Part shown: positions 14,556-55,084 of the stretch, piece after piece
Position numbering within the stretch: position 1 is the first letter of the stretch
Layout: each line of letters begins with the position of its first letter
Source: a virus
Direction: 5' to 3' (one strand)
IMG/VR virus record: IMGVR_UViG_3300021139_001840
Span: 1-64,000 of that record
DNA: 64,000 bases
Program-made: the position numbers and the translations under genes
The notes under the pieces: generated by a model
What the model was told of the DNA's origin: nothing
What the model saw: the letters and a program-made list of their open reading frames with translations, nothing else
Database searches by the model: none

Positions 14556-14600
14556 CAGGAGTGTAATAACGTTTTCTCTGGCAACGCAGTAAATAGTATT

Positions 14601-22720: not shown

Positions 22721-22763
22721 TATTTACACAGGTAATAAGATGATAGGGATAAATAAAGTTACT

Positions 22764-23654
22764 ATGAGTAAACCATTTAAACCTACCACACTTTATATCA
22801 AGACCCATAATGTTACGGGACTTAAATATTTTGGCAAAACAACAGGAAACCCATTTGAATACCGCGGCTCCGGGATCTATTGGACGGCACACCTTAAAAA
22901 ACATGGCAATGATATTACTACAGAAATTCTAGGTTATTATACTGATAAAGACGAATGCATACAAGCCGCTAATTTGTTCTCTACTGAAAATAATATTGTT
23001 AAGGCCGTGAACGAAAATAATAAAAAGATATGGGCTAATCAAATTATCGAAAACGGCATCGATGGAGGAGCAACTTGGTTCGGCCCGCGCCCAAGAGAAA
23101 TGGTGGAAAGAATCGCCGCGAAACAACGAGGAGTACCAAAATCATTACCTCCTGAAGTAGCTAAAGCCGCCGCAGAAAAGGGATTGGCTACACGAGCAAA
23201 AAATGGAACTCTTCGAAAAAAAGGTGAGTGGAAATTCCCTGAAGCAAGTAAGCAAAAGTTAAGAGACGCTAATTTAGGCAAAAAACAATCCAAAGAAACT
23301 ATTGAAAAGCGCCGAGCTAACTTAATAGGAAAAAAACGTCCCGAAGTGGCAGCAAAGTTACGTGGCAGAACACATACACTAGAAGCTAGAGCTAATATGA
23401 AAGCGGCCCAACAAAATAAAGGGCCGTTAACTAAAGAAACCAAGCAAAAAATAAAAGCGGCACGAGCAAAACAGCAGAATGTTAAATCGTGGGGCGAACA
23501 AAATCAAGGCAAAGTAATAGTTATCGATAAAGAAGGAATAATGAGTCGAATACCAAAAGAACAGTATTATGCTCAAACGGGTCCAAAAAATGATTGGGAA
23601 TGGTTAAGTCATAAATCAGCCGATGCTAACGCTCGTAAGCTAAGTAAAATATAG
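22764..23654 (+). mobile_element. Free-standing GIY-YIG homing endonuclease with NUMOD3-like repeats
   Basis: LYIKTHNVTGLKYFGKT...YRGSG; repeats GKKQSKETIEKRR and GRTHTLEARANM; TAAATA promoter at 22750. Confidence 0.85.
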
Positions 23655-36849: not shown

Positions 36850-37461
36850 ATGAAATCAAAATATAGAAACAGAAAAAAATTAATCCTAACTGATGCTGAC
36901 GGCTGTTTGCTGGATTGGGAGTGGGCTTTTAATGTATGGATGCAAGAACATGGTTTTGAAGAAGTTGCTGGGTCCAAATTAAACTATGACATGGCTATAC
37001 GCTATGGTATTCCTAGAGAACAAGTAGTAAAGCTGATACGCATTTTTAATGAATCTGCGGCTATTGGATTTCTTCCTGCCCAGCGCGATGCTATGTACTA
37101 TGTCAAACGGTTAGTCGAAGAACACGGATATAAATTCCATTGTATTACTTCGTTAAGTCTAGATCCTAATGCGCAAAGACTTCGTGAGATGAATCTAAGT
37201 AAGTTGTTCGGTGAACATACATTTGAACGTATCGTATGTTTAGATACCGGAGCGCACAAAGATGACGCACTAGAAGAATATGAAGGCACTGGCCTCGTTT
37301 GGATTGAGGACAAGCCAGAGAATGCTGAGGCCGGATATAAGTACGGATTAAATTCCCTACTTATAGAACATGGTCATAATTTTGAATATGCCCATCCGCA
37401 TATTAAATTAGTTAAAAATTGGAAACATATTTATAGTATAATTACAGGAGAACAGGGTTAA
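36850..37461 (+). CDS. HAD-family 5'(3')-nucleotidase-like protein
   Basis: DADGCLLDW, ITS, K, WIEDKPEN. Confidence 0.85.
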   Translation: MKSKYRNRKKLILTDADGCLLDWEWAFNVWMQEHGFEEVAGSKLNYDMAIRYGIPREQVVKLIRIFNESAAIGFLPAQRDAMYYVKRLVEEHGYKFHCITSLSLDPNAQRLREMNLSKLFGEHTFERIVCLDTGAHKDDALEEYEGTGLVWIEDKPENAEAGYKYGLNSLLIEHGHNFEYAHPHIKLVKNWKHIYSIITGEQG

Positions 37462-38071
37462 GTTTGCAATTATCATTGTGCCATCGTACTAAGTGACTTG
37501 GTTGAAACATTCCGTTACAATGAATACACTTAAATCGTTCTCTGTTTTTTGCTTTATTGCTAAGTACAGCCCGATATTCTACCGATGATCTTGACTCTGC
37601 TTGTTTCTTAATATAATCTGGATCATTCCATAGAGCTTTTACGGAATTAGTAATATTATTAATTATCACTTTTCCAGCAGGAGTAGTATATCGAGTTTGC
37701 CTTTCAATTTTCATAGTGTTGTATTGATCTGTATCCTGCCAACGGGCTATAGCACTTTTATGTTGAAGATAACTTGATTGCTCAGTTGAATTATAACTTC
37801 TGCCAGTTCCACCTGATCGTAAATTATAACAGAGCGGATTGGATAAGTTTTCGTTAATAACTTTAATTTCCTGTTGATAGGCCTCACCCTCATTGTCAAA
37901 CTCAAACAGAGTTTCACGAACAAAGTTGTCTTTTCCGTATTTTTTGATTGCTTTTGCTAATAACGATCCAGACCCGTAATATCCGTCAAATGATTCTTTA
38001 GATTGATTATGTTTGCCAATGTAAAATTTTCCATTGACTAAATTTGTAGTTTTGTATATAATAAATATCAT
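37442..38071 (-). mobile_element. Free-standing GIY-YIG (Seg-like) homing endonuclease
   Basis: IYKTTNLVNGKFYIGKH...YYGSG...AIKKYG; C-terminal CIHC...WHNDNC. Confidence 0.9.
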
Positions 38072-38139
38072 TGCTGATTGCTCCTTTAAAGCGTTAGAGT
38101 CCCTGGGTGTTTCAGCACCGCGAGGGACATCTTTATTTA
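38072..38139 (-). ncRNA. Structured 5' leader, copy 1
   Basis: TAAATA, then GUCCCU-CGC-GGUG-CUGAAA-CACC-C-AGGGAC, then CUAACGCUUUAAAGGAGCAAUCAGC. Confidence 0.75.
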
Positions 38140-38143
38140 GTGC

Positions 38144-38875
38144 TTAATCGTACATCTTTAAGATATGCGTTATCATATGATGACGCTGAATATCCTTAGA
38201 TTCAAACTCGCATAGACTAATGCCCTTTACACCCCCTTTCTTAAGTCTGGTTAGGATGTCGGCTAAGCCGTTTTTTGCGCCGGTTCGATCGGTCTGTTCG
38301 GTGTCCCCTGTCACTACTATCTTACTGCCTTCGCCAATGCGTGTTAGAAGCATGACCATTTGAGCAGGGGTCATATTTTGAGCCTCGTCAGCGATGATAA
38401 ATGCTTTTTTTAGTGATCTGCCTCTCATAAACGACAACGGAGCAATTTCAATTTTCTGATCTTCGATCATCGCTGCAATGTCTTGCGGACGATAATACTC
38501 TCTCAGTATGTCTGTAATTGGTTTAATCCACGGGTCCATTTTTTGATTTAAGTCACCCGGTAAAAATCCGTGATTTTCGTTTTCAACAGAAACTGCTGGT
38601 CTAGTTAGTACTATGCGATCTACTTCTCCTTCTCTAAAGGCTTTTATTGCCGCCAGGACGGCAAGATATGTCTTGCCTGTGCCTGCCGGACCCGCTGTTA
38701 CGACAATATACTGACTATCGTCTTGTAAAGCCAATACTAACTTTTCCTGATTTCTAGTTCTGGGAACTATGTCAATCGGGCGTTGTTTTACTGGTTTAAC
38801 TTGGTCGAAGCGTATTGTGTTTTCTGGTTGTGCCATTTGGCGTTTTTGTGATTTTACTGCTCTGTGTCTACTCAA
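38144..38875 (-). CDS. phoH: PhoH-family ATPase
   Basis: GPAGTGKT, LTRPAV, GFLPG, FMRGR, DEAQN, GDTEQTD; GGAG SD before TTG 38875. Confidence 0.95.
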   Translation of the reverse strand: MSRHRAVKSQKRQMAQPENTIRFDQVKPVKQRPIDIVPRTRNQEKLVLALQDDSQYIVVTAGPAGTGKTYLAVLAAIKAFREGEVDRIVLTRPAVSVENENHGFLPGDLNQKMDPWIKPITDILREYYRPQDIAAMIEDQKIEIAPLSFMRGRSLKKAFIIADEAQNMTPAQMVMLLTRIGEGSKIVVTGDTEQTDRTGAKNGLADILTRLKKGGVKGISLCEFESKDIQRHHMITHILKMYD

Positions 38876-39053
38876 TTTATACTCCATTGTAGTTGAGTTA
38901 CTTCCGACAGCACCTTGCTGTCCAAAGTATTTACGACCCATGATTTTTATATTCTATGGGTGTTAATAAGTGTAATAGATAGCATAAGTACATACCCAGG
39001 CCCCAAAAATTCAAAATAACCCTAACCTTTCCATTTAACTAAATAATAGTACC

Positions 39054-53955: not shown

Positions 53956-54158
53956 GATTACATGAATTTGTTAATTTGCAAGAAGAGGCATCAGTTGGGG
54001 CAACTGCTAGCGGCAGTGTTGCCACTGTAGCAATGCCGCTAGGCGCTGTACAAAGAAGAATACCAGCAGATTCATTTTTTATCGGAGTTGAAACTATAGA
54101 TTCTACTCCTAATACTCCTAAAGAGTATAAAACATATAAGGAAAAATCTAAAGTTTAA
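53952..54158 (+). CDS. Small protein with capsid-targeting-like N-terminus
   Basis: MRLHEFVNLQEE-ASVGATASGSVA. Confidence 0.65.
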   Translation: MRLHEFVNLQEEASVGATASGSVATVAMPLGAVQRRIPADSFFIGVETIDSTPNTPKEYKTYKEKSKV

Positions 54159-54534
54159 CCAATTTATTTCTTGATTTATTTCTTTGTATTGAACCAACAC
54201 CACGATAATACCCCTCAGGGCATCTATCTGATTTAACACTATCTCTTCCTTTAACGCCGCCCGGCCCTCCCCCTGTTTCAGGTATACGATTTGCCCAATT
54301 ATTGCTTTCGGCAACATTCCATAATTTGCTGTAGTATCTTCCAGCAGATTTCATTTCTTCTTTATTATCAGTTTCTAATAAAATTTCGGTATCGACGTCA
54401 TAACCATAATCTTGTATATGCAAAGTCCAATCAACACCCGAACCTTCATATTTAAATGGATTTTTAGATGGTTGACCTAAATATTGTAACCCTGTTATTC
54501 TGCGAGTCTTTTTGTAGAGATAGTAAATACTCAT
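54148..54534 (-). mobile_element. Short, possibly degenerate GIY-YIG endonuclease
   Basis: LYKKTRRITGLQYLGQ...YEGSG..W..H...WAN; clearly related to the 22764 protein but without the NUMOD3-like region. Confidence 0.8.
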
Positions 54535-54601
54535 GCTGATTGCTCCTTTAAAGCATTAGGGTAGTTGGGGATTACAGTCCCGCGAACTACACTTCTATTT
54601 A
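54535..54601 (-). ncRNA. Structured 5' leader, copy 2
   Basis: TAAATA, then GUAGUU-CGC-GGGA-CUGUAA-UCCC-C-AACUAC, then CUAAUGCUUUAAAGGAGCAAUCAGC. Confidence 0.75.
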
Positions 54602-54643
54602 GTTAATTTAACTAAATAATAGATAATATATAAAGGATTTATA

Positions 54644-55084
54644 ATGCTTGCTGAATTATTAAAAGTGCTACTTGCTTCTACATTTACTTATTACCTTAAA
54701 GCACACTTTTTTCATTGGTCAGTAGAAGGCAAAGACTTCTATCAATATCACAAATTCCTACAAAAAATCTACGAAGATGCTTACGGGGCTGTAGATACTA
54801 TTGCGGAATTTATTCGCACACTAGACGAATATGCCCCGGGAAGCCTAACTCGTTATCAAGAACTATCACGTATTCAAGATCAAACTAAAGTGCCAAGAGC
54901 ACAACTAATGATAGAAGAGTTATTGCATGACTCACATATTATGATTGAACTTCTCAATGAATGTTTTGCTGCTGCCACAGCAGAAAATAAACAAGACATC
55001 GCAAATTTTATTGCTGAAAGATTAACTGCTACTAATAAGTATATCTGGATGCTATCAAGTTTTTTAAAAGAATCTAGAGAGTGA
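54644..55084 (+). CDS. dps: Dps family ferritin-like protein
   Basis: KAHFFHWSVEG.DFYQYH...D.IAE.IR.L...K..WML. Confidence 0.92.
   Translation: MLAELLKVLLASTFTYYLKAHFFHWSVEGKDFYQYHKFLQKIYEDAYGAVDTIAEFIRTLDEYAPGSLTRYQELSRIQDQTKVPRAQLMIEELLHDSHIMIELLNECFAAATAENKQDIANFIAERLTATNKYIWMLSSFLKESRE

Follow-up and report, generated by a model that had tools for sequence, protein, structure and literature searches.

A portable cassette at the 5′ ends of selfish nuclease genes in uncultured T4-like phages conserves an antisense-strand fold and carries a predicted outward late promoter

Two homing endonuclease genes in a 64,000-nt stretch of viral DNA (hereafter the window) are each headed by a copy of a portable ~90-base cassette, an element that uncultured T4-like phages carry at the start of hundreds of unrelated selfish nuclease genes. 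The stem-loop structure conserved in this family fits the antisense strand, opposite the gene. We consider it probable that the element is a bidirectional late cassette from which a small antisense RNA, complementary to the nuclease 5′ UTR, restrains the nuclease. Large lytic phages have homing endonucleases as their main mobile elements, and the sole regulatory logic known to us for them is that of a handful of T-even genes that use late promoters, RBS-hiding hairpins and autorepression. A portable antisense cassette would represent a second, transposon-like way of preventing a selfish nuclease from harming its carrier.

The window forms the first 64 kb of an IMG/VR viral record that is 96.8 kb long (G+C 38%, CheckV completeness 28%) and encodes a T4-type family-B DNA polymerase, baseplate-wedge-like pieces, PhoH, a Lon-like protease and a ferritin/Dps-like protein. 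Nearly all of its genes lie on the plus strand, and both cassette-bearing nuclease genes lie on the minus strand. Copy 1 (minus strand, 38140–38073) reads CTAAATA-AAGAT-GTCCCT-CGC-GGTG-CTGAAA-CACC-C-AGGGAC-T-CTAACGCTTTAAAGGAGCAATCAGC-A-ATG, and copy 2 (minus strand, 54602–54535) reads CTAAATA-GAAGT-GTAGTT-CGC-GGGA-CTGTAA-TCCC-C-AACTAC-C-CTAATGCTTTAAAGGAGCAATCAGC-ATG. In both copies CTAAATA is followed after 5 nt by a hairpin, whose 6-bp and 4-bp stems are separated by a CGC/C interior and capped by a 6-nt loop, and then by a 25-nt tail that ends in CAGC adjoining the ATG. The features of the two copies, with those of the genes they precede, are as follows.

37442–38071, minus strand: homing endonuclease gene 1 (GIY-YIG, 209 aa), whose codons 2–4, ATA TTT ATT, are cassette
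38061–38067, plus strand: copy 1, predicted outward (antisense) late promoter ATAAATA, the reverse complement of TATTTAT
38068–38072, plus strand: copy 1, 5-nt spacer of the antisense promoter, with the predicted +1 at the G at 38073
38073–38140, plus strand: copy 1, predicted ~68-nt antisense RNA (fold −21.7 kcal/mol, z −2.4), in the order unpaired G, P2, linker A, P1, U-rich tail AUCUUUAUUUAG
38074–38097, plus strand: copy 1, hairpin P2, with loop UCCUUUA complementary to the Shine-Dalgarno (SD) sequence
38081–38086, minus strand: copy 1, SD sequence AAGGAG of the nuclease mRNA, opposite the antisense P2 loop and 3′ arm
38099–38128, no strand assigned: copy 1, hairpin 1 (P1), whose outer stem of 6 bp and inner stem of 4 bp flank a C-G-C versus C interior, with a loop of 6 nt
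38128, minus strand: copy 1, predicted sense +1, the first G of hairpin 1
38134–38140, minus strand: copy 1, sense late-promoter-like box CTAAATA, followed by the 5-nt spacer
54148–54534, minus strand: homing endonuclease gene 2 (short GIY-YIG-like, 128 aa; PHROG 314, E 1e-7), whose codons 2–4, AGT ATT TAC, are part of the cassette
54523–54529, plus strand: copy 2, predicted antisense late promoter GTAAATA, with spacer 54530–54534 and predicted +1 at the G at 54535
54535–54602, plus strand: copy 2, predicted ~68-nt antisense RNA (fold −17.8 kcal/mol, z −1.8), comprising P2 (54536–54559), P1 (54561–54590) and tail ACUUCUAUUUAG
54596–54602, minus strand: copy 2, sense late-promoter-like box CTAAATA, back to back with the box at 54612–54618 (plus strand)

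The preliminary description, made from the window alone, had reported a covarying leader common to these two GIY-YIG genes, and our analysis bears this out. The layout is as it was given, with coordinates correct to within 1–2 nt. The copies differ at five base pairs, three of the outer stem and two of the inner, and each of these differences is compensatory. The tail is identical at 24/25 positions and occurs exactly twice in the window compared with no occurrence in 100 shuffles. The element is longer than had been claimed, however, as it continues into the ORFs with TATTTAT/C in codons 2–4 (38061–38067 and 54523–54529). At copy 2 the match to the covariance model spans 54498–54612 on the minus strand and scores 108 bits. 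The product of gene 1 matches Pfam GIY-YIG and SegE_GIY-YIG as well as PHROG 314 homing endonuclease (E 1e-34). It was also rightly observed that the two proteins are divergent (39% identity over 62 aa) and that a third GIY-YIG gene, with its ATG at 22764, lacks the leader; this gene begins with gATAAATAaagttactATG, a late-promoter-like box in a nearly leaderless arrangement with no hairpins.

Boxes of the form [A/C/G]TAAATA are found 5–40 nt upstream of the ATG at many window genes, and a sharp TAAATA-N5-ATG class occurs at 14589, 23881, 47156, 49061, 53657 and other positions. This class places the transcription start ~6 nt past the box, and transcription from T4 late promoters likewise starts ~6 nt after the box. 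The CTAAATA at 54612–54618 on the plus strand, which adjoins copy 2, serves the ferritin/Dps-like gene at 54644–55084. A search with T4 gp55, the late sigma factor, detected homologues in 4/5 large cassette-bearing contigs (E 4e-26 to 7e-6), and no homologue of T4 gp55 or gp45 was detected in the window's own record, which is itself 28% complete.

The cassette is present in at least 188 IMG/VR viral loci. The exact 20-nt tail retrieved 19 viral contigs from IMG/VR, a hairpin pattern (GTAGTTCRCG-N8-18-CCAACTAC) matched at least 120 viral loci, and a tail pattern that leaves the hairpin free (CTCTAA-N16-24-CAGC-N5-TATTTAT) matched at least another 120 viral loci. The preliminary description had suggested searching viral metagenomes with a covariance model and comparing the element with Rfam. 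The covariance model, R1, when run with cmsearch confirmed 113 and 83 cassettes, respectively, among the pattern matches listed. No described Rfam family matches the window element, as a scan of the window gave no match at gathering thresholds and the E-value mode around copy 1 returned only snR13 (E 7.7). Two complete carrier genomes hold 13 copies in 360 kb and 8 copies in 194 kb. Among cultured phages, blastn of two cassette copies against 50,697 records gave no match, and R1 gave no significant match on T4 (best E 0.37) or on the whole S-PM2 record (best E 3.3). In prokaryote genomes the tail pattern yielded one real copy among the 120 matches listed, the other 119 being chance matches; because the sole real copy lies on a 2.2-kb Bacteroidetes MAG contig, it allows no host assignment. 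A literature search with the motif sequences returned chance primer matches only.

The position of the cassette is always the 5′ end of an ORF. The ORFs below it encode GIY-YIG nucleases with NUMOD3, HNH (PF01844), HNH_3, DUF7487/TnsA-like and unknown proteins. The nuclease gene is inverted relative to both of its neighbors in 51/87 cases. The upstream neighbor is divergent in 109/174 cases and co-directional with the nuclease gene in 65/174, which include copy 1 with phoH. Where the neighbor is divergent its ATG lies at a median distance of 72 nt, and most divergent neighbors have their own promoter between the cassette and this ATG, either a sigma70-like TTGACA-N17-TATAAT or a TAAATA box.

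The hairpin structure is real. Alignment A2 was drawn from the tail-pattern set and is thus unbiased for the hairpin, for which 13 pairs were modelled. Double-sided changes were observed in 13/13 of these pairs (321 cells), and 96.9% of the cells are paired compared with 66.4% after shuffling and 27–43% when the partners are slid. Among the outer-stem variants that occur, each with its own complement, are GTAGTT, GTAGGT, GTAGAT, GTGAGT, GTCCGT, GTCCTT, GTGTAT, GCCGAT and GTAACT. The covariation initially noticed between the two window copies is thus also present in a larger alignment.

The variation within the family is not symmetric with respect to strand, and it demonstrates that the conserved stem-loop structure belongs to the antisense strand. 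When the 13 pairs are read on the sense strand, the non-Watson-Crick cells consist of 24 A·C and 5 G·U. The middle base of the C[G/A]C bulge and the single 3′ C/T combine on the sense strand as G-C (45), A-U (12) and A·C (21), an extra pair that is 100% pairable on the antisense strand only, as G-C, A-U or G·U. The combined sense tally is 45 A·C versus 5 G·U, where every sense A·C is an antisense G·U. Hairpin 1 is also the stabler on the antisense strand in 52/78 cases, with a mean of −10.7 kcal/mol compared with −9.3 kcal/mol on the sense strand (Wilcoxon p 2e-5).

The flanks of the tail exhibit the same preference. TCTAAY, which follows hairpin 1, and RYCAGC, which precedes the ATG, pair on the antisense strand only (5′-GCUGAU...GUUAGA-3′), with a pairability per position of 100/100/100/96/97% on the antisense strand versus 96/100/1/90/57% on the sense strand. 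The flank helix contains one invariant antisense G·U, which is a sense A·C in 123/124 copies. It exhibits the compensatory change from CAGC/TCTAA to CAAC/TTTAA 7 times, and further compensatory variants are TCTATG/CACAGC, TCTATT/AACAGC, TCTATA/TACAGC and TCTAAC/GTCAGC. In the antisense-oriented alignment A3, whose lower P2 helix was found by folding and then counted across the family, 96% of cells are paired over 19 pairs and double changes occur in 17/19; in the 11 pairs of P1 98.9% of cells are paired, and 10/11 have no unpaired cell at all. Neither a symmetric DNA palindrome nor a sense RNA would produce such a pattern. Both window copies are entirely Watson-Crick and fold about equally well on either strand (sense z −3.2 and −2.0), so the strand assignment is a property of the family and is not read from the window.

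Several readings made from the window copies change in the light of these data. The element had been interpreted as a portable cis-regulatory RNA, and it is indeed portable, covarying and joined to several nuclease families, but a sense leader as the structure under selection is not supported, since the fold fits the antisense strand. A mini-hairpin had been placed around the SD sequence; its GCU/AGC part covaries but the rest does not, and GCU/AGC forms the top of a longer antisense hairpin. A pseudoknot between CUG in the loop and the CAG before the ATG is rejected, as CUG occurs in the loop in 15/78 and 22/128 copies (only 17–19%) and the CAG is part of the antisense helix.

Conservation extends into the coding sequence. 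TATTTA lies 4–6 nt past CAGC in 115/128 hairpin-anchored copies. Since the ATG follows CAGC at an offset of 0, 1, 2 or 3 nt, TATTTA falls in all three reading frames, and the proteins accordingly begin with MxIY (85 copies), MYL (19 copies) or MIF (14 copies). Even in the few copies with an ATG upstream of CAGC the spacing of TATTTA is kept. In proteins of the MxIY class, codon 2 ends in T in 67/67 copies (background 32.5%) and the Ile codon is ATT in 67/67 (background 39%), and there is thus constraint at the nucleotide level inside the ORF. Several of the proteins have their true GIY motif only 5–10 residues further on, which together with the fixed synonymous sites indicates that the first 3–4 codons are part of the cassette and not of the enzyme.

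Read on the opposite strand, TATTTAY becomes RTAAATA, the core of the late promoter. From this box to the G opposite CAGC there are 5 nt, a distance equal to that between the sense box and hairpin 1 and to the TAAATA-to-ATG spacing at near-leaderless genes. The sense N-TAAATA box itself is present in 126/128 copies and lies 5 nt before hairpin 1 in 104/128. As the nuclease genes are inverted in 51/87 cases, read-through sense transcripts cannot account for the element inside the ORF. The core match, the fixed N5 spacing and the frozen synonymous sites lead us to predict that codons 2–4 hold an outward late promoter.

We propose that the element is a self-contained bidirectional late-expression cassette that travels with free-standing homing endonuclease genes of gp55-bearing T4-like phages. 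On the gene strand, N-TAAATA would start the nuclease mRNA ~6 nt further on, where the first base of hairpin 1 lies, with the SD sequence and the AUG coming next. On the opposite strand, the late box in codons 2–4 would direct an outward transcript from the G opposite the last C of CAGC, and this transcript would fold from nucleotide 2 into P2 and then P1, followed by a U-rich stretch that overlaps the sense promoter. The predicted P2 comprises 5 bp, an optional bulge and 3–4 bp closed by the 7-nt loop UCCUUUA, which is the exact complement of the SD region, and the predicted tail past P1, A-C/U-UUU-UAUUUAU, is the reverse complement of the spacer plus the sense promoter. From this geometry the predicted RNA of ~65–70 nt would span the whole nuclease 5′ UTR with full complementarity and with the SD sequence opposite the P2 loop.

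Pairing of the antisense RNA with the mRNA would then block ribosome binding or trigger cleavage, and nuclease output would be capped while the phage DNA copy number climbs, in the style of the IS10 RNA-OUT. On this model both boxes may be active promoters, P1 may terminate the outward transcript and the RNA may act as a repressor; analogy with known systems likewise points to repression of nuclease synthesis by the predicted RNA. The U-tract past the antisense P1 is interrupted, with a mean of 6 T in 10 nt and a longest run of usually 3, and a consensus terminator scan called no terminator in either window copy, so the transcript may run into the neighboring gene. With late-type promoters on both the sense and the antisense strand, the regulatory logic, whether ratio or copy-number sensing, is conjecture.

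The outward promoter and the structured RNA could instead serve the adjoining phage gene as a kind of repair kit for the insertion site, with no part in nuclease control. P2 would then be a 5′ stabilizer of the read-out mRNA, or P1 a terminator or insulator against phage transcripts that cross the inverted nuclease gene in antisense. In favor of this, the nuclease gene has the opposite orientation to both neighbors in 51/87 cases, the upstream neighbor is co-directional with the antisense transcript in 109/174 cases at a median of 72 nt to its ATG, the U-tract is weak, and T4 provides a precedent in the promoters for downstream genes that are embedded in seg and mob genes (PMC2988022). We nevertheless regard this explanation as unlikely. 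At the 65/174 loci where the neighbor is co-directional with the nuclease gene, including copy 1 with phoH, a read-out transcript would be useless, yet the cassette is equally conserved there. Most divergent neighbors moreover keep a sigma70-like or TAAATA promoter of their own, such as the CTAAATA at 54612 in the window, and a role purely as terminator or insulator leaves P2 and the embedded promoter unexplained.

It is quite unlikely, in our estimation, that selection acts on the gene strand through an mRNA leader in which hairpin 1 is a 5′-terminal stabilizer or protein site and hairpin 2 tunes access to the SD sequence. The 45 sense A·C mismatches versus 5 sense G·U argue against such a leader, as do the conserved TCTAA...CAGC flanks, which pair on the antisense strand only and carry an invariant sense A·C. 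It also leaves unexplained why TATTTA is fixed in three frames 5 nt past CAGC, and the loop-CUG pseudoknot is not conserved. What speaks for a leader is that the predicted sense start coincides exactly with the first base of hairpin 1 (5-nt spacer, 104/128), the same geometry as that of the 5′-terminal stabilizing stem-loops reportedly described by Emory, Bouvet and Belasco in 1992, and that the sense strand folds well in most copies, with z values of −3.2 and −2.0 for the window ones.

A third explanation follows the T4 paradigm, whereby the promoter sequence AUAAAUA in read-through RNA would pair with UAUUUAU past the AUG and block initiation, with late transcripts remaining translatable. 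The two elements are exact complements, and the principle is established for I-TevI/II/III, segB and Aeh1 mobE (PMC2988022). However, the mean predicted pair probability of this helix is 0.165 and exceeds 0.5 in just 15% of copies. The helix is not extended by its flanks (−1/+1 p 0.02 with C never opposite G; −2/+2 not significant), it does not need the fixed CAGC-N5-TATTTA spacing, and for most cassettes the upstream gene is divergent and would supply no read-through sense transcript. A TAAATA:TATTTA occlusion helix is therefore rejected on the basis of low pair probability, no flanking covariation and wrong gene orientation, and we consider this explanation very improbable. Little credence is likewise due to an element that acts as DNA, with a single-stranded hairpin or cruciform on the non-coding strand serving recombination, homing or replication: DNA hairpins too tolerate G·T wobble, so strand asymmetry by itself cannot tell RNA from single-stranded DNA, but the promoter-like box suitably spaced from the first paired base, the loop complementary to the SD sequence and the constant location at ORF 5′ ends fit a transcript.

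If the antisense RNA is made as proposed, its action need not be confined to the gene that encodes it. Each phage carries 2 to 13 or more copies, and P2 is near-identical within a genome: 24/25 nt are shared in the window, and TCTAGAAC...GTTCCAGC occurs in 5/7 copies of the 194-kb phage. P1, by this reading, is free to vary. With such near-identity every small RNA could target all nuclease mRNAs. The cassettes might thus form a genome-wide trans-acting antisense network in which the RNA of each copy could silence every nuclease mRNA, a speculative possibility to which we assign a rather low probability. Such a network would represent a copy-number-sensing joint repression of all homing endonucleases, and, when related phages with the same cassette variant co-infect, it might provide immunity to their nucleases or a means of competing with them.

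Among known systems the cassette is best filed under cis-antisense control, here applied to phage homing endonucleases. In IS10 the antisense RNA is RNA-OUT, 69 nt long, which base-pairs with the region where transposase translation starts, keeps ribosomes from binding and leads to multicopy inhibition (PMC5006887). The cassette is similar to the RNA-OUT/RNA-IN system of IS10/Tn10 in that control would be exerted over a selfish element's nuclease or transposase gene, and in that an outward promoter, predicted in our case, lies inside the 5′ end of the ORF and faces the gene's own promoter. The predicted stem-loop antisense RNA of ~69 nt is likewise complementary to the translation initiation region, and the cassette is also a multi-copy element for which dosage-dependent (‘multicopy’) inhibition is possible. 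Unlike IS10, to which it has no sequence or structural homology, the cassette has promoters of the phage late type (TAAATA) and a two-hairpin RNA, is joined to many unrelated nuclease families and supplies their first 3–4 codons.

I-TevI/II/III, segB and mobE of T-even phages and Aeh1 combine a late promoter with a sense hairpin that sequesters the RBS (PMC2988022). The cassette shares with them a T4-type late promoter directly before a homing endonuclease gene (the late box, TATAAATA, is directly upstream of the nuclease ORF in 126/128 copies), an RNA structure around the RBS and, as we would presume for the cassette, the purpose of restricting nuclease expression. In the T-even scheme the promoter lies inside the 5′ arm of the sense hairpin that hides the SD sequence. 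No promoter inside an SD/AUG-sequestering sense hairpin is found in the cassette, whose promoter lies outside the hairpins and whose hairpin 1 starts past the promoter and is off the SD sequence. The T-even genes are also part of co-directional read-through units, whereas the cassette genes are mostly inverted (51/87) and not embedded co-directionally in an early/middle polycistronic unit, and their selected fold is on the other strand.

In cyanophage S-PM2, experiments have detected CfrI, an RNA antisense to a gene for a homing endonuclease (PMC2984593, citing Millard et al. 2010). Both cases involve antisense to a homing endonuclease gene in a T4-like phage, with CfrI detected and the cassette RNA predicted. 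CfrI is ~225 nt long, links the nuclease with psbA and is confined to a single locus, whereas the cassette is short, multi-copy and portable. CfrI is a different molecule, and R1 has no significant match in S-PM2 (E 3.3).

Hairpins with TATAAATA upstream of free-standing endonucleases (‘fractured genes’) in ocean metagenomes were described by Dassa et al. 2009 (PMC2677866). These hairpins are similar to the cassette in that they come from phage-like loci of environmental DNA that encode GIY-YIG and Vsr-like nucleases, a T4 late-promoter box is present, and two conserved, mutually complementary motifs lie in the 5′ hairpin (PMC2677866). The text interprets the structure as a sense translational hairpin and describes no strand test, antisense promoter or antisense helix (PMC2677866). 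Compared by description and not by motif sequence, the hairpins of Dassa et al. may be the same element or a sister element.

The literature that could be searched contained neither the antisense reading nor the embedded promoter nor the antisense-only helix, and no established name for the cassette was found. PeSL (promoter-early stem-loop) elements are said to have been described by Arbiol et al. in 2010 as mobile regulatory cassettes of T4-type phages. Like the cassette, they are reportedly small repeated modules of a promoter and a stem-loop located by accessory genes and spread by recombination. Unlike PeSL, which reportedly consist of sigma70-type early promoters and intergenic terminators, the cassette is tied to nuclease ORFs and has an antisense layout.

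The cassette provides the opening codons of hundreds of unrelated nucleases and recurs up to 13 times per phage genome, and in uncultured T4-like phages the predicted antisense RNA would rank among the most abundant of the structured small RNAs, while missing from Rfam. It offers a compact, testable model for bidirectional T4-type late promoters as well as a practical annotation marker for free-standing nuclease genes and their true start codons.

As a minor observation, an intein fragment is present near one cassette-bearing locus, but it does not flank the nuclease gene.

At the cassette copy that heads nuclease gene 1 (a GIY-YIG gene at 37442-38071, minus strand), two further features are present:

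38034-38062, plus strand: near-consensus sigma70-type promoter, TTGACT-17-TATAAT (11/12)
38144-38941, minus strand: PhoH-like gene

The promoter falls within the 5' part of nuclease gene 1, on the antisense strand. Its -10 hexamer shares bases with the late promoter predicted for the antisense RNA of copy 1, so host polymerase might also make that RNA early. The PhoH-like gene is directly upstream of nuclease gene 1 and, as no third gene in that stretch is on the minus strand, the two may form a single inverted module. Promoters of the sigma70 type also recur beside the cassette elsewhere, as many loci carry a sigma70-like early promoter (TTGACA-N17-TATAAT) no more than ~10-20 nt past the cassette's U-rich end, serving the divergent neighbouring gene (L028, L093, L103, L070, L030, L063 and L012). 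This pairing of U-rich end and adjoining early promoter resembles PeSL modules, in which T4-type phages combine a promoter with a stem-loop.

The two hairpins of the predicted antisense RNA, P1 and P2, behave differently within and between genomes. The P2 stem sequence differs between the cassette loci of two complete phage genomes, the 194-kb G003 (L369-L375) and the 360-kb G001 (L356-L368); in G003 it reads TCTAGAAC...GTTCCAGC in 5 of the 7 copies, with much longer loops. P1 is free to vary among copies inside either genome. A genome-specific P2 with a variable P1 would fit either homogenisation inside each genome or cross-talk in trans.

Two sequences show a partial resemblance to the cassette:

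22740-23654, plus strand: third GIY-YIG gene
88477-88588, minus strand, in G000 (the full viral record) outside the window: weak match to R1, the cassette covariance model (30 bits, E 0.003)

The third GIY-YIG gene carries gATAAATAaagtt, whose spacer matches the cassette consensus, with its ATG 3 nt further on; hairpins, SD and TATTTA are all missing, so that it resembles a relative that lacks the cassette or has lost it. The R1 match (GATATAAAC...GTAGCGTGATA...TATCTAACCAC-TCTAAAAC...TATATTTAG) is nearly identical to L088:2812-2923, lies within a small plus-strand ORF or on the strand opposite it, and looks like a decayed cassette relic.

One further viral locus has the cassette near an intein fragment:

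L053:10397-11380, plus strand: ORF with an intein C-terminal splicing region and a family-B DNA polymerase fragment

This ORF and a TnsA-like nuclease gene headed by the cassette are ~800 nt apart. An intein fragment near a nuclease gene recalls the 'fractured gene' loci of Dassa et al. 2009 (PMC2677866), but the L053 nuclease gene is not between intein halves.

Across the window and the rest of G000, [A/C/G]TAAATA stands exactly 4-5 nt before the ATG of at least nine genes (for example CTAAATAATAGTATG), a spacing that points to late mRNAs without leaders in this T4-like phage. A longer box is also repeated:

14589, 23881, 47156, 49061, 53657, plus strand: TAAATA box 4-5 nt before ATG
G000 81224, 88388, 91910(-), 92914: TAAATA box 4-5 nt before ATG
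6556(-), 39039, 40272, 54596(-), 54612: longer box TTAACTAAATA(A/G)TAG
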